Of a DNA stretch of 64,000 bases, positions 1-52,914 are shown in pieces. Position 1 is the first letter of the stretch, and every line of letters starts with the position of its first letter. The notes under the pieces were generated by a model. It did not search any database, was not told where the DNA came from, and worked only from the letters and a program-made list of their open reading frames with translations. Source of the stretch: Candidatus Pacearchaeota archaeon. Lineage in GTDB: Archaea > Nanobdellota > Nanobdellia > Pacearchaeales > GW2011-AR1. The stretch covers positions 394,991 to 458,990 of the forward strand of contig JBAZNI010000001.1 in the NCBI GenBank assembly GCA_041649295.1, read 5' to 3'. A program made the position numbers and the translations under genes.

Positions 1-270
1 ATAAACTGCATAAACTTTATTTTCAAGCTGATTTTTTTCAGCTAGAATAACAAGATAATTCAAAATAGATAAAAAAGCTGTAAGAGTTTTAGTTCCTCCT
101 GTCGGTGCGCTAATTAAAATATTTTTCCTCTCCCATATTGCACCAACCCCATATTTTTGAGTCAGAGAAAAATCACTAAACTTTGAAAAAAACCACTCTT
201 TTACAAGGGGATGCAAAGTCTCTGCTATCTTATCTGAATTTCTCTCCACAGCTTTCTTTATGCTTGTCAT
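1..270 (-). CDS. Lhr-like DEAD/DEAH helicase, N-terminal fragment (continues beyond window)
   Basis: Own reverse translation from the ATG at 270..268: MTSIKKAVERNSDKIAETLHPLVKEWFFSKFSDFSLTQKYGVGAIWERKNILISAPTGGTKTLTAFLSIL. It has a Q-motif-like LTQKY and a Walker-A-like APTGGTKT. It is absent from the ORF track because there is no stop in the window. Confidence 0.55.
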   Translation of the reverse strand, partial: MTSIKKAVERNSDKIAETLHPLVKEWFFSKFSDFSLTQKYGVGAIWERKNILISAPTGGTKTLTAFLSILNYLVILAEKNQLENKVYAVY

Positions 271-329
271 TTTACAGAAAAGTCTTAAGGATATTTATAC
301 CTGCCTCTTTTAAATTTTTATAATCGTAA

Positions 330-683
330 TTATTCTACTAAAACCCTTTGGATTCTCCCAATATGCTCTAAATACATCCTCCATCTAGAAACAGGAACTC
401 TTGGAAGCGGATTTCCCTGGTTATCTTGCCCAACTAAGTAAGTTTCATCACCTTCTGCAATTGTATTAGTATAATGTTCTCTAACAAAATTTTGAACCTC
501 ATTACTAAGAGCTGTAAGCTCTTCCATTTGTCCAGGAGTTATTCTTTTAAAAAGAGGTTCTCCGTAAAGTGCAGTAGTAAGTAATTTATTATGCCTATTA
601 AGACGTTCTTCTCCCAAGATAACTTTAAATGCCCCAGGTTCCCCTCCTCGATTATTATTGCCAGTTTCTCTTTGTGATTCCAT
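330..683 (-). CDS. hypothetical protein (117 aa, R-rich orphan)
   Basis: Long ATG-initiated ORF in AT-rich DNA. No motif recognised. Confidence 0.5.
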   Translation of the reverse strand: MESQRETGNNNRGGEPGAFKVILGEERLNRHNKLLTTALYGEPLFKRITPGQMEELTALSNEVQNFVREHYTNTIAEGDETYLVGQDNQGNPLPRVPVSRWRMYLEHIGRIQRVLVE

Positions 684-731
684 AACATCACCTAAATTAA
701 AACCTTTATAAATGTTTCGATTATAAAGTAG

Positions 732-1046
732 TTACAATTCTTCTTCTATTTCCTCATTTAAAAAATCTTCCTGCTCCTTAGAAACAACAACATCCTCTTC
801 ATCTAATCCTGCTTCAATTTTATCAAGATTCTTTTTTTGCATTGGATTCTGCTTTATCTGCTCTAAAATTCCTTTTTTTTCATCAAGCTGTTTTTTTGAG
901 TTTACCAGCTTTTGCTCTAAAAAAGAGTTTCCTTTAAACATATTAGCTAAATCATACTCTGTGTTCTTAATCCTGTTTTTAAGCTCAGCTATCTCTTCTT
1001 CTAATTTCTCTTGTTCGCTTCTTTCTTCTTCAGGCACCATTTCCAT
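732..1046 (-). CDS. hypothetical acidic coiled-coil protein (104 aa)
   Basis: ORF with E/K-rich heptad-like sequence (EEIAELKNRIKNTEYDL...). Confidence 0.45.
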   Translation of the reverse strand: MEMVPEEERSEQEKLEEEIAELKNRIKNTEYDLANMFKGNSFLEQKLVNSKKQLDEKKGILEQIKQNPMQKKNLDKIEAGLDEEDVVVSKEQEDFLNEEIEEEL

Positions 1047-1431
1047 ACTTTACCCAAAATTTAATAAAAAATCAAGGAACTAAGGGTTTTTATAGCTTTA
1101 GTTTTCCAGGTTATTTAATCTGACAAGCACTAATTTTATTGCTTCCTAGAACAAAATTGTTTAACTTGGTTTGCCATTATTTCTATAATAAGATAAACTC
1201 TTCTCGCTCTTGTTAAAGAACTTCTGAGAATCCACTCTCCATTCCAGTCAGGAGAACATTCAACTACCTTAACATCTTTGGGTAAGCAGTAAGCTACATC
1301 CGGCAACTCGCAAGAGCCACAACTTCCAAATAAATCTCTTTCAGATTGTTCTATTTGTGGCAAAAAATCAGTATTATACCTTTTAAGACAAATGAACCAA
1401 CCTTTAAAAATACTCTTATATTTAATTTAAG

Positions 1432-3159
1432 ATGACAATCAGACAGCCAATTGTAACAGTAGCCGGGCATGTTGACCACGGAAAAACATCTCTTTTAGAT
1501 GCGCTTAGATGCAGCTCTGTTGCAGAATGTGAAGCCGGGGCGATTACTCAAAAAATTTCATTCACATTATTTCCACAAAGTGCATTGAAAAAATCATGTC
1601 CTCTAATTGAAACTCGGAAGATAGCATTAGAAATACCTGGGTTTTTATTCATAGACACCCCAGGGCATGCAGCATTTAATAACATTAGAAAAAGAGGAGG
1701 AAGCCTAGCAGACCTGGCAATTCTTGTAATAGATTTAAATGAAGGTATAAAACCGCAGACAGCAGAAGTAATACAAATTTTAAAATCTAACAAAACTCCA
1801 TTTATAATTGCACTCAATAAAATTGACAAGATAAAAGGATGGCAAAAAATATCAAATGATTTAAAAGAAAATATAGAAAAACAGCCTATAAATGCAAAAC
1901 AAGAATTCGAAGAAAAATTTTACACTTTGGTTGGAAGTTTAAATTCTTACGGGTTTGAATCAGATTTATTTTACAAAATAACAGACTTTACAAAAAAAAT
2001 TGCAATGGTTCCATGCTCTGCAAAAACAAAAGAGGGATTGCCTGAATTAATAATGGTATTATGTGGCTTATCTCAGAAATTTCTTAAAGAAAATCTAAAA
2101 TTAGGAAAAAAAGCAAAAGGAGTTGTATTAGAAATTAAAAAAGAAAATGCAATTAACTGCATAGAATCAATTTTATATGATGGAGAGTTGAAAATAGGGG
2201 ATAAAATTGCAATTGCAAGTTTTAATAAGCTAATTTTCACAAAAGTAAAGGCGATTCATGAAATAATGCCGATGTCTGACAAGTTCAGACAGGTTGAAAA
2301 AGTTAGGTCTGCATCAGGAATCAGGATTTATTTAACTGATAAAGCAGAAATTCTTCCGGGAATGCCTTTTATAACTTATGAAAATGAAAAAGAAGCTGAA
2401 AATGAATTTAAAGAAATTACAGGAGAAGCAATAAAAACTGACAAACAGGGGATAATTATCAAAGCAGATTCTTTGGGGAGTTTGGAAGCTATGATTGTTT
2501 TGTTAAAACAGTCAAATATTCAAATAGTAAAAGCAGGAATAGGTTCAATAAACAAATCAGATATTCTTGCAGCAAAAGCGAATTTAGAAATAAATCCAAT
2601 TGACGCAGTTATTCTTGGATTTAATGTAGAAAAAGAGGAGGAAATTAGCAATACTACAAATATAAAAATAATAACAAACGATGTAGTTTATAAATTAATT
2701 GAAGACTTGCAAAAATACCGGGAAGAAAAAAACAAAGAAATTGAAAAAGAAAGGCTTATGGGATTGTCAAATATCTGCAAACTCGAAATACTCCATAAAT
2801 ATATGTTCAGAAACAGCAATCCAGCAATATTTGGAATCAACATAACTACAGGAAAATTAAAGGCAAACACAGAATTAATAGATGAAAATGGGGAATATAT
2901 TGGAAGAATAAAACATATTCAATCAGAAAAGAGTTCAGTAGAAGAAGCTTCTCATGGAATGGAAGTTGCCATTTCAATACCGGGAATTAATTTCGAAAGA
3001 AAATTAGGAAATAAAAAATACCTTTATTCAGCTTTAAGCGACAAGCAAATTAAAACACTGCTGAATAACAAAGATATTTTGTCAGGAGAAGAAATTTCAG
3101 TAATAAGAGAACTGCAAGTTATAAAAGAAAAAGCGCCGCAAAGAGCTGTAAAAAACTAA
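1432..3159 (+). CDS. infB: translation initiation factor aIF5B (IF2-type GTPase)
   Basis: G1 motif VAGHVDHGKTSLLDAL, G3 DTPGH, G4 NKID. The 575-aa length and domain order are typical of aIF5B. Confidence 0.9.
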   Translation: MTIRQPIVTVAGHVDHGKTSLLDALRCSSVAECEAGAITQKISFTLFPQSALKKSCPLIETRKIALEIPGFLFIDTPGHAAFNNIRKRGGSLADLAILVIDLNEGIKPQTAEVIQILKSNKTPFIIALNKIDKIKGWQKISNDLKENIEKQPINAKQEFEEKFYTLVGSLNSYGFESDLFYKITDFTKKIAMVPCSAKTKEGLPELIMVLCGLSQKFLKENLKLGKKAKGVVLEIKKENAINCIESILYDGELKIGDKIAIASFNKLIFTKVKAIHEIMPMSDKFRQVEKVRSASGIRIYLTDKAEILPGMPFITYENEKEAENEFKEITGEAIKTDKQGIIIKADSLGSLEAMIVLLKQSNIQIVKAGIGSINKSDILAAKANLEINPIDAVILGFNVEKEEEISNTTNIKIITNDVVYKLIEDLQKYREEKNKEIEKERLMGLSNICKLEILHKYMFRNSNPAIFGINITTGKLKANTELIDENGEYIGRIKHIQSEKSSVEEASHGMEVAISIPGINFERKLGNKKYLYSALSDKQIKTLLNNKDILSGEEISVIRELQVIKEKAPQRAVKN

Positions 3160-3212
3160 AAATCAGTTTAAACTCCCAATATGTTTATAAACTCGGCACC
3201 ATAAAATAAATT

Positions 3213-3716
3213 ATGTCAGATAAAAAGAAAGATGAATGTTATAAAGGCGATGCAGAAGAAATAAGAGAGCAATATGAAAAATTAAGCAAGAAATATTCTC
3301 TGCCCTTGTTTAAAGAGCTTAACGAAGACTTTGATATTGTAAAAGCAGAGTTTGGATGTGAAACTTTGCTAAGAGATATAAGAAAAGAAATTTCAACCAA
3401 ATATCTTTCTGCATTAAACATTGTTGAACTTCTCTTAAACCCAAGCAATGGCTCTATGTTCCATATGTTTCTGGTTAAAAGTATTTCAAAAGAAGAAAAA
3501 GACATCCTGGATAATTTATTTGATAAAATCGGGGAGATTCAAATAGAGGGCTTTGAACTAGATGTTTATTATAATGAAAAAAAAGAGGCGGAATTTATTA
3601 AAAAAACATTCCACTTATGGCAGGAAATTAAACCAGATTTAGCAAAAGTTATCAAGTCGCTTAAGGATAACTGGAGAAAAACAAGTTTTAAAAAAGAAAA
3701 AAGTTATTTTGGTTGA
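3213..3716 (+). CDS. hypothetical protein (167 aa)
   Basis: ORF with core-like K-rich composition. No motif recognised. Confidence 0.5.
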   Translation: MSDKKKDECYKGDAEEIREQYEKLSKKYSLPLFKELNEDFDIVKAEFGCETLLRDIRKEISTKYLSALNIVELLLNPSNGSMFHMFLVKSISKEEKDILDNLFDKIGEIQIEGFELDVYYNEKKEAEFIKKTFHLWQEIKPDLAKVIKSLKDNWRKTSFKKEKSYFG

Positions 3717-3768: not shown

Positions 3769-4677
3769 ATGGGAAAAGAAGGCAGAATTGTGTTTTATGA
3801 GCAAATTGCCAAGAATAAAAGAAATTCTGTGTTTTTAATGTTTTTAATAATCCTAGTTATAATTGCCTTAGGTTCTGCTATTGGGCTGGCAGTTGGCGAA
3901 GGATATTTTTTTATTATAATGATTTTTGCAATTATTATTTCCGTATCATATGTTACAATTGGATTTTACAATTCTGACAAAATTGCATTAGCTTCTGTAA
4001 ATGCCAAAGAAGCAGATAAAGTTGAGTATAAAACGCTTTATAATAGTGTTGAGTCAATGAGTCTGGCTTCTGGTATGCCGATGCCAAAAGTATATGTTAT
4101 GCCCGGGGAGCAAATAAATGCATTTGCAACAGGAAGAAACCCCCAACATTCTGCTATCTGTGTTACAGAAGGAGCTTTGAAAAAACTTGACAAGCAGGAG
4201 TTAGAAGGAGTTATTGCACATGAAATTGGGCATGTTGCTAATTATGATATCAGATTCATGACTTTAACAGCTGTTTTAATCGGATTAGTTGCAATTATTT
4301 CTGAGATGTTTTTAAGAAGTTTATGGTATTCTGGTGGAGGAGGTTCAGGAGAAAAAGACAAGGGGCAGGCAATTTTTTTAATAATTGGGATTGTTTTAGC
4401 AATCCTTGCACCAATTTTAACTTACTTTGTTCAGATGGCAATTTCAAGAAAAAGGGAATACACGGCAGACGCAACTGCTGTCAAATTCACAAGAACTCCT
4501 ACAGGTTTGATAAGTGCATTAAAAAAAATTAAAAATGACGCCCCAATGGAAAAAGGGAAAATCAGCAAAGCAATTGCCCCTTTATTTATCTCCGACCCAT
4601 TTAGAAAAAAAATGGCAAATCTAAGTTCAACTCACCCGCCTATTGAAAAAAGGATTGAAATTCTGGAAAGAATGTAA
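3769..4677 (+). CDS. htpX: HtpX-type M48 zinc metalloprotease
   Basis: HEIGHV (HExxH) motif, multiple TM segments and a C-terminal STHPP motif. Start moved to the ATG at 3769; the track ORF begins at a TTG at 3709. Confidence 0.85.
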   Translation: MGKEGRIVFYEQIAKNKRNSVFLMFLIILVIIALGSAIGLAVGEGYFFIIMIFAIIISVSYVTIGFYNSDKIALASVNAKEADKVEYKTLYNSVESMSLASGMPMPKVYVMPGEQINAFATGRNPQHSAICVTEGALKKLDKQELEGVIAHEIGHVANYDIRFMTLTAVLIGLVAIISEMFLRSLWYSGGGGSGEKDKGQAIFLIIGIVLAILAPILTYFVQMAISRKREYTADATAVKFTRTPTGLISALKKIKNDAPMEKGKISKAIAPLFISDPFRKKMANLSSTHPPIEKRIEILERM

Positions 4678-11071: not shown

Positions 11072-11114
11072 ACAACTAGAAGTAAATAAAGAGGGGATAC
11101 ATACAACATATTGT
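11072..11114 (+). promoter_or_regulatory. pair of NrdR-box-like sites upstream of nrdR
   Basis: acaactagaagt (11072..11083) and the palindromic acaacatattgt (11103..11114). The 31-bp phasing matches the spacing recalled for bacterial tandem NrdR boxes. Confidence 0.45.
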
Positions 11115-11142
11115 ATGTACTATTAACTAATAATATTTAAAA

Positions 11143-11577
11143 ATGATATGTCCTTTTTGTCAGAGCGAAGAAACAAAGGTAACAGATAAAAGAGCTTCAA
11201 GCGGAGCAATTAGAAGAAGAAGAGAATGTTTAAAATGCTCTAAGAGATTTACAACTTATGAGAAAATTGAACCAATTGAAAGGTATGTTATAAAAAAAGA
11301 TGGCAGAAGAGAACCCTTCAACAGAGATAAGATATTTTTAGGCATTATAAAATCCTGTGAAAAACGAAATATAAGCCACGAACAAGTTGAACAAATTGTG
11401 TCTGAAATTGAAAATAAAATAATAAAAAAGAACAAAGAAGTTCCAACAGCTAAAATTGGAGAGGCAGTTATGAAAAACTTAAAAAAATTAGATAAGATAG
11501 CTTACATAAGATTTGCATCAGTTTATAGGGATTTTAGAGATATAAACGATTTTACAAAAGAATTGAATTCATTATAA
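11143..11577 (+). CDS. nrdR: transcriptional repressor NrdR (zinc ribbon + ATP-cone)
   Basis: MICPFCQSEETKVTDKR...CLKCSKRFTTYE zinc ribbon, followed by an ATP-cone (KKDGRREPF..KI). Confidence 0.85.
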   Translation: MICPFCQSEETKVTDKRASSGAIRRRRECLKCSKRFTTYEKIEPIERYVIKKDGRREPFNRDKIFLGIIKSCEKRNISHEQVEQIVSEIENKIIKKNKEVPTAKIGEAVMKNLKKLDKIAYIRFASVYRDFRDINDFTKELNSL

Positions 11578-11644
11578 AAATGGTTAATAAAATAAGATTA
11601 TGTAAACAGGAAATTTCCAATACCTTATTTTGTAAAGGAGAACG

Positions 11645-13783
11645 ATGGTAAACAAAATAAGGAAACGTGATGGAAGTGTTGTTGTGTTTCAGGAAGAAAA
11701 AATAAAAGAAGCTATTTGGAAAGCAGTAAAAGCTGTTGGAGGTTCTAATAGAAAAAGAGCAGAAGAATTAGGAGAAATTGTCTGTAACCAGATTAATAAA
11801 AAATATAATGAAAATGGAATTCCAGATGTAGAAGAAGTTCAGGATTTGGTTGAAAAAACATTAATTGAAGAAAAGCATGCAAAAACAGCAAAAGCATATA
11901 TTCTTTATAGAAAAAGCCACGAAGAATTAAGAAATGTAAAAGGGCTGTTTGATACTATAGAAGCTGTTGACGATTATATTGGATTAAATGATTGGATGGT
12001 TAAGGAGAATTCTAATATGGGTTTTTCTTTGCAAGGGTTAAATAATTATATTGCAACTAAAATAGTTTCAAATTACTGGATTAGAAGAGTTTATCCAGAA
12101 GCAATAAGAAAAGCTCATGAAAATGTGGATATTCATATTCATGATTTAGGCACACTTGGAGCTTACTGTGCTGGCTGGGATTTGAAAGATTTGTTATTAA
12201 CTGGATTTAGAGGTGTTCCTGGAAAAGTAGAGTCTAAACCTCCAAAACATTTTAGAACTGCGCTAGGGCAGATGGTTAATTTCTTTTATACGTTACAAGG
12301 AGAAACAGCAGGAGCACAGGCATTTTCAAATTTTGATACTTTATTAGCCCCTTTTGTTAAATATGACCATTTAGAATATGATGAAGTTAAACAGGCAATT
12401 CAGGAATTTTTATTTAACTTATCTGTTCCTACAAGAGTCGGTTTCCAAAGTCCATTTACAAATATCACAATGGATTTGAAAGTTCCAGAATATATGAAAA
12501 ATGAGCCAGTTATAATTGGAGGAAAATCTATGCAGGAAACTTATGGCGAGTTTCAGAAAGAAATGGATATGATTAATATGGCTTTTGCAGAAGGTATGAT
12601 GGAGGGAGATGCAAGTGGGAGAGTTTTTACATTCCCTATACCTACATATAATATAACTTCTGATTTTGACTGGGATAACCCCAACTATAATCTTATCTGG
12701 GAAATGACTGCGAAATATGGAATTCCTTATTTTTCAAATTTTATTAACTCAGATATGAAACCAGAAGATGCAAGAAGTATGTGCTGCAGACTTCGCCTCG
12801 ATCAGACAGAATTAAGAAAAAGAGGAGGAGGATTATTCGGAGCAAATCCTCAAACTGGAAGCATAGGTGTTGTAACTATAAATATGCCAAGATTAGGATT
12901 TACTGCAGTTGATGAACAGGATTTTTTTGCACGTTTAGGAGAGTTAATGGAATTGGCAAAAGAAAGCTTGGAAATAAAAAGAAAATCTCTTGAGAAATTT
13001 ACAGAAATTGGATTATATCCTTATTCTAAATTTTATTTAAGGCATGTTCATAAAAGATTTGGAAATTATTGGAAAAATCATTTTGCAACTATTGGATTAT
13101 TGGGTATGAATGAGGCAATTATGAATTTTATGCCTGGAGAAAATATAGCAACTGCTAAAGGAAATGAATTTGCAATTAAAGTTCTTAAGTTTATGAGGGG
13201 TAGATTAGAAGAATTCCAGAAAGAGACAGGGAATATATATAATCTAGAAGCAACTCCTGGAGAAGGGACAACATATAGGTTTGCAAGAAATGATAAAAAA
13301 AGATTTGGAAGGATAATTGTTGCTAATGAGGAAGCTTTTAAAAATGGAGCTAAACCATATTATACAAACTCGACTCAACTGCCAGTTAATTACACCCCGG
13401 ATTTATTTGAAGCTTTAGAACTTCAGGATAATCTTCAGACGCAATACACTGGAGGAACAGTTTTTCACGCATTTATTGGAGAGAAACTTTCTGGACAAGC
13501 TGTTAAGGTTCTTGTTAAGAAAGTAGCTGAAAAGTTTTCCTTGCCATACTTTACAATAACCCCCACATTTTCAATTTGTCCCATACACGGGTATTTGGCT
13601 GGGGACCATGAGTACTGCCCAAAATGTGATAATGAAAATGGTTTTTCTAATGCAACTGAAAAAGCATCACGAGCTCAGGTAATTGTTGAAGCAATTTATA
13701 ATAATAAAATTGGGGATTCTATTATAGATACCCATCATCAAGATGCAATTGACATTAATTTAAAAAAAGGAGGTGAAATTTAA
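11645..13783 (+). CDS. nrdD: anaerobic (class III) ribonucleotide reductase NrdD, lacking the glycyl-radical segment
   Basis: N-terminal ATP-cone, catalytic finger-loop SMCCRL and C-terminal Zn site CPIHGY...CPKCD. About 50 unrelated residues follow before the TAA at 13781. Confidence 0.85.
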   Translation: MVNKIRKRDGSVVVFQEEKIKEAIWKAVKAVGGSNRKRAEELGEIVCNQINKKYNENGIPDVEEVQDLVEKTLIEEKHAKTAKAYILYRKSHEELRNVKGLFDTIEAVDDYIGLNDWMVKENSNMGFSLQGLNNYIATKIVSNYWIRRVYPEAIRKAHENVDIHIHDLGTLGAYCAGWDLKDLLLTGFRGVPGKVESKPPKHFRTALGQMVNFFYTLQGETAGAQAFSNFDTLLAPFVKYDHLEYDEVKQAIQEFLFNLSVPTRVGFQSPFTNITMDLKVPEYMKNEPVIIGGKSMQETYGEFQKEMDMINMAFAEGMMEGDASGRVFTFPIPTYNITSDFDWDNPNYNLIWEMTAKYGIPYFSNFINSDMKPEDARSMCCRLRLDQTELRKRGGGLFGANPQTGSIGVVTINMPRLGFTAVDEQDFFARLGELMELAKESLEIKRKSLEKFTEIGLYPYSKFYLRHVHKRFGNYWKNHFATIGLLGMNEAIMNFMPGENIATAKGNEFAIKVLKFMRGRLEEFQKETGNIYNLEATPGEGTTYRFARNDKKRFGRIIVANEEAFKNGAKPYYTNSTQLPVNYTPDLFEALELQDNLQTQYTGGTVFHAFIGEKLSGQAVKVLVKKVAEKFSLPYFTITPTFSICPIHGYLAGDHEYCPKCDNENGFSNATEKASRAQVIVEAIYNNKIGDSIIDTHHQDAIDINLKKGGEI

Positions 13784-13918
13784 ATGACAGGTGAAAAAAG
13801 AACAAAATGCGAAAGATTTACCCGTGTGTGCGGTTATTTAAGGCCAGTTGAAATGATGAATGAAGGCAAACAAGCAGAGGTTTCTGATCGTATCATGTTC
13901 AATGTAGCTGAAAAATGA
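13784..13918 (+). CDS. stand-alone 44-aa glycyl-radical peptide (detached NrdD C-terminus)
   Basis: Own translation: MTGEKRTKCERFTRVCGYLRPVEMMNEGKQAEVSDRIMFNVAEK, carrying the RxCGY glycyl-radical motif. The ATG follows the nrdD stop directly (taaATG). A ggaggtga Shine-Dalgarno sits at 13770..13777. The stop overlaps the nrdG start. Confidence 0.7.
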   Translation: MTGEKRTKCERFTRVCGYLRPVEMMNEGKQAEVSDRIMFNVAEK

Positions 13919-14619
13919 TGAAAATCAAGGCTATTCAAAAAACAACTTTAATTGATTACCCTGGAAAAATAGCTTGCACTATATTTATTCATGGGTGTAA
14001 TTTTAAATGTGGTTTCTGCCATAATCCTGAATTAGTTATTTATGAAAAAGAAAAGGACATTAATGAAAATGAAATTTTGACTTTTTTGGAAAAACAAAGA
14101 AAATATTTAGAGGGGGTTTGTATCAGCGGAGGAGAACCCTTAATCTCCTTGAACTCAGAGTTTATAAAAAAAATAAAGTCTATGGGTTATTTGATTAAAA
14201 TTGATACAAATGGGAGCTATCCTGATAAATTAAGCGAATTAATCTCTAAAAATTTAGTTGATTATATTGCTATGGATATAAAATCAAGCAGAGAAAATTA
14301 TCCCAAGCTTGTTAATTCTAGGGTGAATTTAAATAAAATTGAAGAAAGTATTAAAATAATTTCCTCTCTTCCTGATTATGAATTTCGGACTACAATTATT
14401 GAAGAAATTCACAGCAAAGAGGAAGTCGAAAAAATAATTAAATGGGTCAGTGAATTTGCAGGTAAAAAAATAAAAAGGTTCGTTTTTCAGGGTTTTAAGA
14501 AACAACATAAAATAATTGATGATAAATTTAAAAATTACAAAGATACTAATGAAGAGTATCTATATAAATTAAAAGGAATAGCTCAAGAATACTGCAATGA
14601 GGTAATTATTAAAGCATGA
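13915..14619 (+). CDS. nrdG: anaerobic RNR activating enzyme (radical SAM)
   Basis: CNFKCGFCHN (CxxxCxxC) near the N-terminus, GGEPL motif, and operon position after nrdD. Confidence 0.85.
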   Translation: MMKIKAIQKTTLIDYPGKIACTIFIHGCNFKCGFCHNPELVIYEKEKDINENEILTFLEKQRKYLEGVCISGGEPLISLNSEFIKKIKSMGYLIKIDTNGSYPDKLSELISKNLVDYIAMDIKSSRENYPKLVNSRVNLNKIEESIKIISSLPDYEFRTTIIEEIHSKEEVEKIIKWVSEFAGKKIKRFVFQGFKKQHKIIDDKFKNYKDTNEEYLYKLKGIAQEYCNEVIIKA

Positions 14620-15317
14620 AAAAAATATGTATTGTCGGAAAGGATATGGAAAATTCAAAAAAACTTAAAGAGCATCTGTTAAAGCTGGGATTTGAATACT
14701 CTGAAGAAAATCCATCACTGGTTATTGCATATGGAGGAGATGGGACTCTGCTTATTGCTGAAAGGCAGTTTCCTGGTGTGCTTAAAATTCTTGTAAAAGA
14801 CAGCAATACATCAAGTAAAGCATGCAATTTGCATATTGAAGATATTATAAAAAAATATCTTGCCCATGATTATGAAATTGAAATTATAAATAAATTAAAG
14901 GCAATTGCAAATTTATCTTCAAAAACAAGGGAATTAACAGGAATGAATGATATTGTTATAAGAAATACTCTGCCAACAGAGGCAGTCAGATTCGAAAGTT
15001 TCATTAACAATAAACTAATTGGAGAATTTATTGGAGATGGGGTTGTAATCGCAACTCCTTATGGAAGCACAGCTTATTTCCATAGTATTACAAGAAAAAA
15101 CATTTGTAATGGTATAGGGATTGCATTTAATAATATAACTGCTGAAAAACCGCTGTTAAATTTAGAGAATAAAGAGAGAATCAAATTTAAAATATTAAGG
15201 GGCCCTGCTGTGCTGGTTGCAGACAATAACAGGGATTTTATTAATCTTGAAAAAGGGGACGAAGTGGAAATTTTTCAAGGTGATGAATTTGCAAAAATAA
15301 TCAGATTTAGGCAATGA
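14616..15317 (+). CDS. nadK: NAD kinase
   Basis: YGGDGTLL motif, later NDIV and TPYGSTAY motifs. Confidence 0.8.
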   Translation: MKKICIVGKDMENSKKLKEHLLKLGFEYSEENPSLVIAYGGDGTLLIAERQFPGVLKILVKDSNTSSKACNLHIEDIIKKYLAHDYEIEIINKLKAIANLSSKTRELTGMNDIVIRNTLPTEAVRFESFINNKLIGEFIGDGVVIATPYGSTAYFHSITRKNICNGIGIAFNNITAEKPLLNLENKERIKFKILRGPAVLVADNNRDFINLEKGDEVEIFQGDEFAKIIRFRQ

Positions 15318-15365: not shown

Positions 15366-15797
15366 ATGGTAAAAATAAAACTTAAACGAATTAATAATGA
15401 TGCAGTAACCCCTTTCTATGCAAAAGAAGGGGATGCAGGACTGGATTTATTTTCTGTAAGTGAGCATATATTAAAGCCAGGAGAAAGATGCCTTGTAAAA
15501 ACAGGATTAAGTTTTGAAATACCAAGGGGCTATGAAATTCAAATTCGCCCAAGAAGTGGATTAGCTTTAAAAAATGGAATTTCTCTTGTAAATTCTCCAG
15601 GGACAGTTGATTCAGGTTATAGGGGGGAAATCTGCATTATTGTAATAAATCATGGAAATGAAAATTTTGAAATCAATAAAGGCGACAAAATAGCACAGGC
15701 TGTTTTAAATAAATTTGAAAATGCAGAAATCGAAGAAGTTGAATGTCTTGAAGGAAGTTTAAGAGGTGAAGATGGTTTTGGAAGTACAGGAAATTAA
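15366..15797 (+). CDS. dut: trimeric dUTPase
   Basis: Motifs AGLDL, RPRSG, GTVDSGYRGE, KIAQ and C-terminal RGEDGFGSTG. Confidence 0.9.
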   Translation: MVKIKLKRINNDAVTPFYAKEGDAGLDLFSVSEHILKPGERCLVKTGLSFEIPRGYEIQIRPRSGLALKNGISLVNSPGTVDSGYRGEICIIVINHGNENFEINKGDKIAQAVLNKFENAEIEEVECLEGSLRGEDGFGSTGN

Positions 15798-39162: not shown

Positions 39163-39273
39163 GAGCCTGTAGCTCAGCCAGGTTAGAGCACTGCATTTTG
39201 TTGTGATGTAAAAGTTAGACAAAAGGTGATTCTGATAAGGCAGGGGTCCCCAGTTCGAATCTGGGCAGGCTCA
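39163..39273 (+). tRNA. tRNA-Ile (anticodon GAT) with a 36-nt intron at non-canonical position 30/31
   Basis: Exon 1 is 39163..39194: GAGCCTG-TA-GCTC-AGCCAGGTTA-GAGC-A-CTGC. The intron is 39195..39230. Exon 2 is 39231..39273: T-CTGATAA-GGCAG-GGGTC-CCCAG-TTCGAAT-CTGGG-CAGGCTC-A. Bulge-helix-bulge: central helix CACT/GGTG, bulges GCA and ATT, outer helix TTTTG/CAAAA. Confidence 0.75.
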
Positions 39274-51544: not shown

Positions 51545-52033
51545 ATGAAATCTTTATCAATAAAATCTGTACGGAAAATAGCTCAGAATAAGCACGAGCT
51601 GGAAGAAAAACTTAATGTTAATATTTCTATAATGGGGGGGGTTGTTGAACTTTCTGGAAATGCTGATGATGAACATTTTGCTGTTAAAGTTATACAGGCT
51701 TTAGATTTTCAATTTTTAATTGAAGATGCTTTATTGCTTTTAAGAGAGGATTATATGCTTTGCATTCTTAATATAAAAGATTATACAAATAGGAATGATT
51801 TAAATGTTATAAGGAGCAGGTTGATAGGAACTAAAGGGAAAACTTTGAAAGTTTTAGAAAGTTTGTGTGATTGCTTTTTTGCTGTTAAAGAAAATAAAGT
51901 TGCCATTATTGGCCCGTGTGGAAAGATGCAAGAAGCTGAACAGGCAATCATATCACTGATTCAAGGAGCTAAGCAGGCAAATGTTTATACTCGTTTAGAG
52001 AAGTTGAGAAAGGCTGAAAGAATGATGAGATAG
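51545..52033 (+). CDS. KH-domain RNA-binding protein (aDim2/Pno1-like)
   Basis: LIGTKGKTLKVLES (GxxG loop). Conserved archaeal position downstream of eif1a. Confidence 0.65.
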   Translation: MKSLSIKSVRKIAQNKHELEEKLNVNISIMGGVVELSGNADDEHFAVKVIQALDFQFLIEDALLLLREDYMLCILNIKDYTNRNDLNVIRSRLIGTKGKTLKVLESLCDCFFAVKENKVAIIGPCGKMQEAEQAIISLIQGAKQANVYTRLEKLRKAERMMR

Positions 52034-52069: not shown

Positions 52070-52367
52070 GCCTCGGTAGCTCAGCAGGTAGAGCGAACGG
52101 CTGTAAGACAAGAAGGTTGAATTAGTGAAAAAATACTTCATAAGTTAGCAGCTTCCGAAAGAAATTCCGGAATGAAAAGCGAGTAAATTCAGGGAAACCC
52201 TACATTAAAGATGAGGGCAATCCTGAGCCAAGCCAGAAATGGAAGGTGCAGAGACTAGACACTCGCCACCTAAAGCAAAAAGCTATGGTGATGGGATAGT
52301 CCTACCCTCTAAGGAATTAGAGAAGGTTGTAACCGTTAGGTCAGAGGTTCGAGTCCTTTCCGAGGCG
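52070..52367 (+). tRNA. tRNA with a ~225-nt insertion/intron in the anticodon loop; anticodon GTA (Tyr) if spliced at 37/38, identity uncertain
   Basis: 5' part: GCCTCGG-TA-GCTC-AGCAGGTA-GAGC-G-AACGG-CTGTAA (52070..52106). 3' part: A-CCGTT-AGGTC-AGAGG-TTCGAGT-CCTTT-CCGAGGC-G (52332..52367). G1:C72 and G73 are not what is recalled for archaeal tRNA-Tyr. I could not draw a canonical bulge-helix-bulge. Confidence 0.6.
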
Positions 52368-52914
52368 TAATCCTAAAAGGTACTACGCCCTAATTTCTGC
52401 AAAAGGTTTATTAAGATAATATTTTCTAAGGTTCAATGACAATTAAAGGATTACCAAATAGAGAATGGAATGGGGTACTTTATATACCATGTAAAGCAAT
52501 TCAGCTAACAGTTTTTAGTGAAACTGATAAAAGAATTTTGAGATTAATCGCACCATATAAGAGGGATAAAGAAAGACTTAAGGAAAAAAGAATTGAAGAA
52601 TTAATTTCTAATCCTGCCCTAGTGGGATATCCTGGAACTACAACCCATAGAATGATGTTAATAGATGAATTAAAAGATAATGATTTTTTGCCGATTTCAC
52701 ATCAATTACTAGACAGAAACCAAGAATATAAAGTTGATGGTATGGGTTTTGTTGCTGTTAATTTTAATAGAAAGCATGCTATTGGATATGGAAGTAGTGG
52801 CGAGTTTGGTCTTGGAATAAATGAAGAACATTTAGCTCAAGTCTTTTCTGAACTTCCTAAATGGACTTATGAATTTAGATAGTTTGTGCCCCTCACTTTC
52901 CCCTTTTAGGATTA
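52368..52914. mobile_element. 547-bp cassette with 13-bp perfect terminal inverted repeats, flanked by a 10-bp duplication of the tRNA 3' end
   Basis: Left inverted repeat taatcctaaaagg (52368..52380); right inverted repeat ccttttaggatta (52902..52914). The direct repeat tttccgaggc occurs at 52357..52366 (inside the tRNA) and at 52919..52928. Confidence 0.6.
52436..52882 (+). CDS. hypothetical protein (148 aa), sole ORF of the inverted-repeat cassette
   Basis: ORF. No motif recognised. Confidence 0.5.
   Translation: MTIKGLPNREWNGVLYIPCKAIQLTVFSETDKRILRLIAPYKRDKERLKEKRIEELISNPALVGYPGTTTHRMMLIDELKDNDFLPISHQLLDRNQEYKVDGMGFVAVNFNRKHAIGYGSSGEFGLGINEEHLAQVFSELPKWTYEFR

Follow-up and report, generated by a model that had tools for sequence, protein, structure and literature searches.

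In a 64,000-nucleotide stretch of a Candidatus Pacearchaeota genome (GenBank assembly GCA_041649295.1, contig JBAZNI010000001.1, positions 394,991 to 458,990; hereafter the window), it was found that the glycine loop of an anaerobic, class III ribonucleotide reductase (RNR) is encoded by a separate 44-codon gene between nrdD and nrdG. The locus likely encodes a functional, obligate two-subunit class III RNR that arose by gene fission, with the small peptide as its regular radical-bearing part. Class III RNR is among the best-studied radical enzymes and is regarded as a single-chain, NrdG-activated alpha2 protein. The locus represents a real, conserved and apparently undescribed variant. A sequence-only reading of this DNA had already suggested that the arrangement was new for NrdD, and literature searches among openly accessible papers did not turn up any account of a glycine loop split off from NrdD. 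The reading is carried by the structure of the genes, the conservation of the split, the selection acting on the small gene and the uniqueness of the locus in its genome.

The operon runs on the plus strand in the order nrdR, nrdD (large subunit), the 44-codon gene and nrdG. The large open reading frame (ORF; 11645..13783) encodes 712 amino acids with an ATP-cone (residues 4-94), a catalytic barrel (residues 121-671), a putative zinc site and a C-terminal tail of 51 residues, and it has no glycine loop. In the translation, the predicted thiyl-radical cysteine lies in a finger-loop motif of the double-cysteine MCCR type (M379-C380-C381-R382; 12779..12790), and the predicted Cys3His zinc site (C645-x2-H648...C658-x2-C661; 13577..13627) is entirely on the large chain. 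Both the translation and the Pfam coverage agree with the initial observation that nrdD runs through the zinc site and stops at 13781. The large chain reads ...CPIHGYLAGDHEYCPKC (also given as ...TPTFSICPIHGYLAGDHEYCPKC) just before the tail (DNENGF...ASRAQVIVEAIYNNKIGDSIIDTHH...KKGGEI; 13628..13780), and the last codons of the tail hold the Shine-Dalgarno (SD) sequence of the next gene (GGAGGTGA, 13769..13776). The TAA stop codon of the large ORF (13781..13783) is followed, in the identical frame and with 0 nt between, by the ATG of the small ORF (13784..13918). The translation of the small ORF, MTGEKRTKCERFTRVCGYLRPVEMMNEGKQAEVSDRIMFNVAEK, comprises the RTKCE strand, the glycine loop RVCG17Y and a helix with a tail (RP..MNEGKQ.E..DR). 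Its GGT codon at 13832..13834 encodes Gly17, the predicted radical glycine, which aligns with the glycine of the RITGY motif of P. copri NrdD. The TGA of the small ORF (13916-13918) overlaps the ATG of nrdG (13915) as ATGA. The abutting start and the overlapping stop had both been pointed out before and are as described; the SD sequence is also there, although it lies 7 nt from the ATG rather than the 6 nt first given. An SD-like sequence precedes just 6 of the 45 long ORFs in the window.

Do the two ORFs make up one enzyme? The large ORF matched positions 1-533 of the 562 positions of PF13597 (NRDD; E 3.2e-181, 604 bits against a cut-off of 26.2) in addition to the ATP-cone, while the small ORF matched positions 531-562, which are the last 32 positions of the profile (E 3.5e-9). 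Thus, the two ORFs are exactly complementary, and the sequence missing from the C-terminus of NrdD, with its RxCGY loop, is indeed on the separate ORF, as had been proposed. With NF006126 (684 positions), the large ORF covered positions 2-658 (1056 bits; cut-off 548) and the small ORF positions 649-683. The catalytic barrel of the NRDD family was recognized in the large ORF by Pfam, by NCBIfam and by a fold match to solved NrdDs; the RVxGY glycine loop is not on the large chain, and the two chains together carry the NrdD feature set. In an alignment of 78 homologues, M379, C380, C381 and R382 of the finger loop (S-M-C380-C381-R-L-R) are invariant, and so are C645, H648, C658 and C661 of the zinc site, in which His stands where T4 and P. 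copri have Cys. The motif classes of the NrdD finger loop, including the double-cysteine MCCR, have been described (PMC9669993). The small ORF matched NrdD models only (PF13597 in Pfam at E <= 0.1, and NrdD models in NCBIfam); at this Pfam threshold it had no match to PF01228, the GrcA family model, and the NCBIfam search revealed no curated model for the small gene itself. The nrdG gene (13915..14619) encodes a radical S-adenosylmethionine (SAM) protein of 234 amino acids (PF04055, E 3.5e-18; TIGR02495 NrdG2, E 2.5e-58, 196.6 bits against a cut-off of 131).

Is the split conserved? A comparison with orthologues from related DPANN genomes had been proposed as a check. In a set of 41 relatives, all five NrdD-bearing genomes of the same family (G000, G003, G004, G021 and G022) have the split. 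Direct translation revealed an in-frame stop between nrdD and the peptide in G003 and G022; in G004, which belongs to the same genus, and in G021, the peptide is in another frame and the spacer contains several stops. Five genomes from other families of the same order have a fused NrdD (e.g., CPKC-SKS-CEVYSRIVGY). When 185,579 species genomes were scanned with a peptide profile, 555 confirmed stretches were obtained, and the best 80 of these loci were classified into 63 clearly split, 8 fused and 9 unclassified by the patterns used, although sets of loci fetched in this way are biased to split forms. Their hosts are archaea (Pacearchaeota, Woesearchaeota, other Nanoarchaeota, Aenigmatarchaeota, Micrarchaeota and Thermoplasmatota) and bacteria (Saccharibacteria, Azambacteria, Parcubacteria and Doudnabacteria). 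In a less biased sample of 301 genomes drawn evenly from the phylum, about 70 have NrdD: it is fused in about 35, split as in the window in about 24 and split in a second way in at least 5, which makes about 29 split genomes in all. On the sequences compared, ultra-small archaea and bacteria commonly have the split layout.

The small gene itself is also maintained. A GGAG/GAGG core lies 5' of the peptide ATG in 56 of 71 related loci, and a radical-SAM motif lies downstream of the peptide gene in at least 45 of them. In seven close pairs of peptide genes, the synonymous and non-synonymous codon differences number 16/2, 11/0, 12/4, 13/5, 5/1, 3/0 and 9/9, with synonymous changes clearly in excess in five pairs; this pattern indicates that the peptide is under purifying selection. 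When 27 peptides were aligned, 17 of the 44 positions were invariant, G17 among them. The protein libraries gave the same picture from both sides. The small ORF has 25 stand-alone relatives of 40-58 amino acids in the databases, none of them from NCBI annotation. Among the best 120 of more than 8000 scored large-chain homologues (75-82% identity), 117 end past the zinc site and 3 have a glycine loop; the loop-less large genes are named "ribonucleoside triphosphate reductase" in the database. A peptide-profile search of 1.84 billion cluster representatives gave 4884 matches, and among the best 150 of them, 149 are 42-106 amino acids in length and 135 start with Met and have no barrel residues. 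Since the split is kept across independent genomes and protein libraries, neither error nor pseudogene formation nor readthrough is a general explanation. As a separate observation, three split-type homologues of the large chain, about 1040-1065 amino acids in length (P0032, P0060 and P0104), have, at other places in the barrel, inteins or LAGLIDADG domains (PF14528, PF14890, PF14527).

The break point was located by comparing fused and split sequences. In fused relatives, the sequence is CPKC-KDEG-KTTKCEVYSRVVGY, and 16 residues connect the zinc knuckle to the glycine. In split forms, the large chain reads CPxC-D-E-E-I-G-Y, followed by a variable tail of 9-112 amino acids and the stop, and the small chain begins with M and 1-40 residues before RTKCE[VR]YSR[VI][VC]GY. 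The fission is thus placed in the loop that joins the zinc ribbon (CPKC-D-x-E-x-G) to the RTKCE strand, which leads into the glycine hairpin. The detached part is the glycine hairpin and the C-terminal tail alone, and the zinc ribbon is kept on the body, while the glycyl radical domain (GRD) of P. copri NrdD is given as residues 676-739 with the zinc ribbon included (PMC11226230). The sequence-only reading was right that the radical glycine is on a small separate peptide, as the conserved split, the occurrence of the peptide in three frames, the SD and ATG and the purifying selection support, but went too far in detaching the whole GRD. Neither are the roughly 50 residues after the zinc site unrelated sequence, as had been thought. 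This 51-residue tail has a D-x-E-x-G-[YF] motif and then a helix module, common to a sub-family of homologues (P0027-P0032, G004 and others) with the motifs ASRAQVIVEAI...DTHH or ANRAQVIDAI...DSP. The module (E.ANRAQVIDAI.G....I.DSP/DTHH), which is predicted to be helical, is found in roughly a third of the split homologues. With its in-frame TAA and its tail with an ANRAQ-like helix, the locus in the window is a typical member of this kind of split, hereafter type A.

Because the first knuckle of the zinc site is CxxH, it was considered whether the site could be shared across the type A chains via the invariant Cys9 of RTKCE. This idea was rejected as unsupported: fused CxxH/CxxD relatives lack Cys9 (G030 CGAKTEVY, G037 CGAETEIY, G032 CNKSTEVY), and the fused relative P0127 has RTKPE.

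How often did the split arise? In a quick IQ-TREE tree of the bodies (64 rows, tails removed, with sampling biased to split forms), there are at least 6-7 changes between the split and fused states, each of them either a fission or a re-fusion. Fused forms are nested within split ones, e.g., L037 beside L023 with 97% SH-aLRT (Shimodaira-Hasegawa-like approximate likelihood-ratio test) support. Thus, the state is labile, which argues that both forms work. Fused P0127 (CDEEIGYSENSEQELKRTKPEIYSRIVGY) and P0089 keep the expanded loop. In these two and in L032, a D-E-E-I-G-Y extension and a KRTK(C/P)E peptide start are found in one chain; by their sequences, such proteins look like re-fusions or pre-fission intermediates.

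The source genome (0.81 Mb, about 90% complete) has a single NRDD locus, consisting of one body and one glycine-loop gene. PF02867, the catalytic domain of class I/II RNRs, had no match in this genome, while control genomes were matched. Because the large chain lacks the loop and the genome has no second copy, the small chain is a regular subunit and not a spare. The comparison with GrcA/YfiD of E. coli (and Y06I/vs.6 of T4), raised from the start, is therefore useful as an analogy only. The likeness is that of a small free protein with a glycine-radical loop, and by this analogy radical-SAM activation and docking into the barrel of another chain may be predicted for the peptide. GrcA, in contrast, is a protein of 127 amino acids with PF01228 that duplicates the GRD of full-length pyruvate formate-lyase (PFL) and replaces it after O2 damage, whereas the peptide matches PF13597 only and is the sole glycine loop for a loop-less body. 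A 2026 review names formate lyases as the only enzymes with known spare parts (PMC13450708).

Since the two ORFs are in frame, their readthrough translation (757 amino acids, with the TAA as Q) was modelled by AlphaFold2 (AF2) with the alignment of 78 homologues. The mean predicted local distance difference test (pLDDT) was 80.9 and the predicted template-modelling score (pTM) 0.77. In this fusion model, residues 688-715, i.e., the end of the tail, the stop and the N-terminus of the peptide, have a pLDDT below 50 and form a disordered linker, and the tail helix (669-685) has a pLDDT of about 57. The peptide forms a canonical glycine hairpin with strand 723-728, Gly730 at the tip and strand 731-734, followed by helix 740-748 (pLDDT 81-86). 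Foldseek matched the fusion model to the solved NrdDs of P. copri, S. thermophilus, T. maritima and T4 with E values of about 1e-30 to 1e-21 and TM-scores of 0.60-0.75 (target-normalised) and 0.50-0.64 (query-normalised). The peptide modelled alone with its own alignment has a pLDDT of 59, a pTM of 0.25 and no hairpin. These models fit a peptide that folds upon binding.

How might such an enzyme work? The operon is probably co-transcribed, since no terminator-like site was found on its plus strand and a palindrome resembling an NrdR box precedes nrdR; the scan in question (10.9-16 kb) used a bacterial sigma-70 promoter/terminator model that is uninformative for an archaeon, and its calls were at chance level. 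The 44-residue chain would be made from its own SD and ATG, its translation being coupled to the end of the large ORF. The large chain would provide the ATP-cone, a ten-stranded barrel with the MCCR loop and the whole Cys3His zinc ribbon, and the small chain the beta-hairpin with Gly17 and the C-terminal helix and tail. The peptide would fold only when bound, and its hairpin would enter the barrel by Cys380/381 like the C-terminus of fused NrdDs. NrdG would take the C-alpha hydrogen of Gly17 while the hairpin is outside the barrel, on the free or loosely held peptide. The loaded peptide would then swap the radical with the finger-loop cysteine, and turnover would proceed as in ordinary NrdD. 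In P. copri NrdD, the glycine loop is fully buried in the active state, while the GRD is highly mobile, exits the barrel and is invisible in inhibited states (PMC11226230). The activase of PFL is reported to install the radical on a 7-residue peptide of the cognate loop (PMC13450708). Since the GRD is mobile and an activase acts on a 7-mer, a detached loop is mechanistically plausible.

Several points weigh against this reading of the locus, in addition to the sampling bias mentioned above. With the genome about 90% complete, the missing sequence could encode a second RNR. Deoxynucleotides may be taken up from the host by DPANN archaea, so that being the sole RNR is no strict proof that the enzyme is needed. 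One of the close pairs of peptide genes has as many non-synonymous as synonymous differences (9 each). The fusion and the peptide-alone AF2 runs used different alignments, and the docking of the hairpin beside Cys380/381 is predicted from AF2 confidence values alone. The enzyme is known here from genes and models, from which I infer its expression, non-covalent assembly, activation and activity.

The glycine loop was found detached in other settings, too. A second kind of split, type B, occurs in a divergent NrdD clade of the same phylum (L137 in G057:C11, L138 in G131:C12 and L139 in G132:C1). In the translated L137 locus, the body (20..2533) is followed by the small gene (2575..2733); in G131, the small gene is about 1.2 kb from the body. 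The type B body has an NrdR-type zinc ribbon fused N-terminally and ends with ...TVCMDCNQVGRGYDRD past the first zinc knuckle. The small protein of 52 amino acids, beginning with MAKCEHCGSTNVYGISRVVGYFSRINNWNKSKQAEF, has the second CxxC and the glycine loop, and GAGGTGA lies 6 nt 5' of its ATG. Because the break lies inside the zinc ribbon, both chains would contribute to the zinc site, and by its sequence this sharing looks real. Since a second clade is split elsewhere, the glycine loop was detached at least twice. A lone type-B peptide of 79 amino acids (..AKCPNCLSTNVYGMSRVVGYYSIIENWNDSKKAE..) is encoded at L141 (G334:C22, 3235..3474, minus strand), and no NrdD body was detected in G334, which is 95% complete.

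Lone glycine-loop genes are also found on viral contigs. In 24 of 33 IMG/VR loci (L104-L131), the peptide has no match to a large subunit within flanks of up to 4 kb on each side. These lone peptides are 38-100 amino acids in length with an NrdD-type glycine loop (e.g., L107, 3998..4114; L112, 3989..4144); the 38-residue ORF of L107 overlaps the stop of a 296-residue ORF. Three viral loci (L116, L118 and L125) have versions of 120-134 amino acids with a Cys-rich N-terminal part. The PHROGs search gave no family for the viral peptides beyond a weak match to phrog_4132, a function-unassigned family. At L140 (G247:C63), two tandem glycine-loop mini-proteins (3149..3394, 81 amino acids; 3378..3665, 95 amino acids) with a Cys-rich N-terminal part and a C-terminal PF13597 match lie directly upstream of rubrerythrin genes (3962..4513), and two fused NrdDs are encoded elsewhere in the same genome. 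Judging from this gene context, the mini-proteins are candidates for a true NrdD spare part in an oxidative-stress setting.

These loci raise the possibility that the peptide is an exchangeable radical cartridge. Fission would have been selected because O2 cleaves the chain at the glycyl radical, so that only the 44-residue peptide has to be remade and swapped into the 712-residue body; NrdG would charge the free peptide, and the lone peptides of phages and of oxidative-stress settings would act in trans on host enzymes. The loop fissions at two different points, the lone viral peptides and the mini-proteins beside rubrerythrin in a genome with two fused NrdDs speak for it, and O2 cleavage at the radical site and its rescue by GrcA are presented as established for PFL (PMC13450708). 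However, the single peptide gene of the source genome has no extra copy and is tightly coupled to its nrdD and nrdG neighbours, and near-neutral gain and loss fits the nesting of fused among split forms equally well. I thus consider the cartridge an unlikely explanation of this locus. A wider version is speculative and rather doubtful: in many DPANN archaea, bacteria of the candidate phyla radiation (CPR) and others, NrdG would charge a peptide of 40-60 amino acids that loads reversibly into a loop-less NrdD and is replaced after O2 cleavage, and this module would have been detached at least twice independently and also occur alone on viral contigs or beside rubrerythrin.

Could the TAA be read through instead? 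Programmed readthrough would give a single-chain NrdD with a loop insertion of 50 residues, and the 44-codon gene would be an annotation illusion. The ORFs in the window are in frame and one TAA apart, about a third of the related loci are in frame as well, and a few relatives (P0089 and P0127) are truly fused with an expanded loop. On the other hand, among 65 measurable loci, counted against the frame of the large ORF, 19 peptides are in frame 0, 22 in +1 and 24 in +2, which shows no excess of in-frame cases; the ATG lies -74 to +144 nt from the stop (median 12), with overlap in 11 pairs. Because of this spread of frames, gaps and overlaps, neither readthrough nor frameshifting is a general mechanism. 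The out-of-frame peptides and multiple stops of G004 and G021, the SD and ATG conserved directly 5' of RTKCE and the lack of an Rfam recoding element at the site point the same way, and TAA normally ends 32 of the 45 long ORFs in the window, more than any other stop. Readthrough is thus very improbable.

An error of assembly or sequencing, or a decaying pseudogene in a host-dependent symbiont, is even harder to maintain. The source is a metagenome-assembled genome, and one base change would make the TAA. However, dozens of independent assemblies are alike with different stops, frames and spacers, and the peptide is under purifying selection. No other RNR locus was found in the genome, and both ORFs are otherwise intact; the possibility of a pseudogene, raised along with the sequence-only reading, does not agree with catalytic motifs that are intact and invariant among the 78 homologues. 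I regard this explanation as extremely improbable.

Rejoining of the halves after removal of an element (a group I or bulge-helix-bulge intron, an intein or split intein, or trans-splicing) is scarcely credible: in phages, introns, inteins and homing endonucleases often break up nrdD genes (PMC3653736), and the intein-bearing homologues P0032, P0060 and P0104 (PF14528, PF14890) are noted above, but the zinc site and the peptide are separated by 0-144 nt of non-conserved spacer or overlap, neither piece has an intein or endonuclease domain in Pfam, the tails are as short as 9 amino acids and thus are not intein halves, and no Rfam intron was found at 13.5-14.0 kb, though a group I intron was detected elsewhere in the window.

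The two-subunit reading can be set against known systems. Canonical NrdD/NrdG pairs (T4 1H78/1HK8, T. maritima 4COI/4U3E, P. copri 8P23 and S. thermophilus 9D3X) share with this locus the ATP-cone, the barrel, the MCCR-type loop, the ligand pattern of the zinc site and the RVxGY loop, as well as an adjacent NrdG and control by NrdR, and the fused relatives of the same order are about 60-77% identical over the C-terminal part. All solved or biochemically studied forms are single-chain, whereas here the loop and tail are a separate 44-residue gene product and the large chain closes with a tail past the zinc site. In class II, an RNR catalytic chain is known to be divided naturally by gene fission into a large N-terminal part and a smaller C-terminal part, which must assemble; examples are NrdJa/NrdJb of Pseudomonas aeruginosa (Crona et al. 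2015, PMC4520616, as cited in PMC9669993) and, in Synechococcus phage P60, nrdJa/Jb, which overlap (PMC3653736). In contrast to the present case, that class is B12-dependent, and its detached part is large and without the radical cofactor. Phage nrdD genes annotated as more than one coding piece include T4 nrdD/sunY and those of Lactococcus phage 949, Clostridium phage c-st and Aeromonas phage phiAS4 (PMC3653736). They are interrupted by mobile elements and are rejoined at the RNA or protein level, or their functionality is unknown, whereas in the window there is no element, the break is fixed at the boundary of the glycine loop, and the second piece starts from an SD and ATG of its own.

The neighbours of the locus form, together with it, a compact cluster of nucleotide metabolism. 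Upstream, nrdR (11143..11577, plus strand) encodes a repressor of nrd genes of 144 amino acids with a zinc ribbon (PF22811 Zn_ribbon_NrdR, E 1.9e-17) and an ATP-cone (PF03477, E 6e-25); this is a bacterial-type NrdR in an archaeal genome. The perfect palindrome TACATACAA-CATA-TTGTATGTA (11098..11119), with 9-nt arms that are 100% complementary, is 24 nt 5' of nrdR and resembles the NrdR-box consensus. Downstream of nrdG, a NAD-kinase-like gene (14616-15317; PF20143, E 3.5e-10), whose ATG overlaps the nrdG TGA as ATGA, is followed by a dUTPase gene (15366-15797; PF00692, E 1.5e-32). A 16-nt near-copy of the nrdD start, ATGGTTAATAAAATAA (11580-11595) versus ATGGTAAACAAAATAA (11645-11660), both encoding MVNKI, is found out of frame 65 nt ahead of the true start, perhaps left from a duplication or forming a short leader ORF. 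Farther away in the window, a group I catalytic intron (52128-52323, plus strand; Rfam, 78 bits, full-length model) was found in what seems to be intergenic DNA, with one ORF ending at 52033 and another starting at 52436, outside rRNA and tRNA genes. A 111-nt Rfam tRNA match (39163-39273, plus strand) that was not called by ARAGORN is probably an intron-containing archaeal tRNA.

What does the split mean for these organisms? Because the small gene has no curated model or NCBI annotation, metabolic reconstructions of DPANN and CPR genomes either overlook an essential gene or could take the enzyme for a truncated one. If the cartridge were real, PFL would no longer be the only glycyl radical enzyme with a spare-part system. 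If the loop is a separate protein, as is likely here, this RNR would be the first glycyl radical enzyme with its radical site off the catalytic chain in the regular form; the 44-residue peptide would then be a minimal natural activase substrate, with which the presentation of the buried loop to NrdG, a poorly understood step, becomes directly testable.

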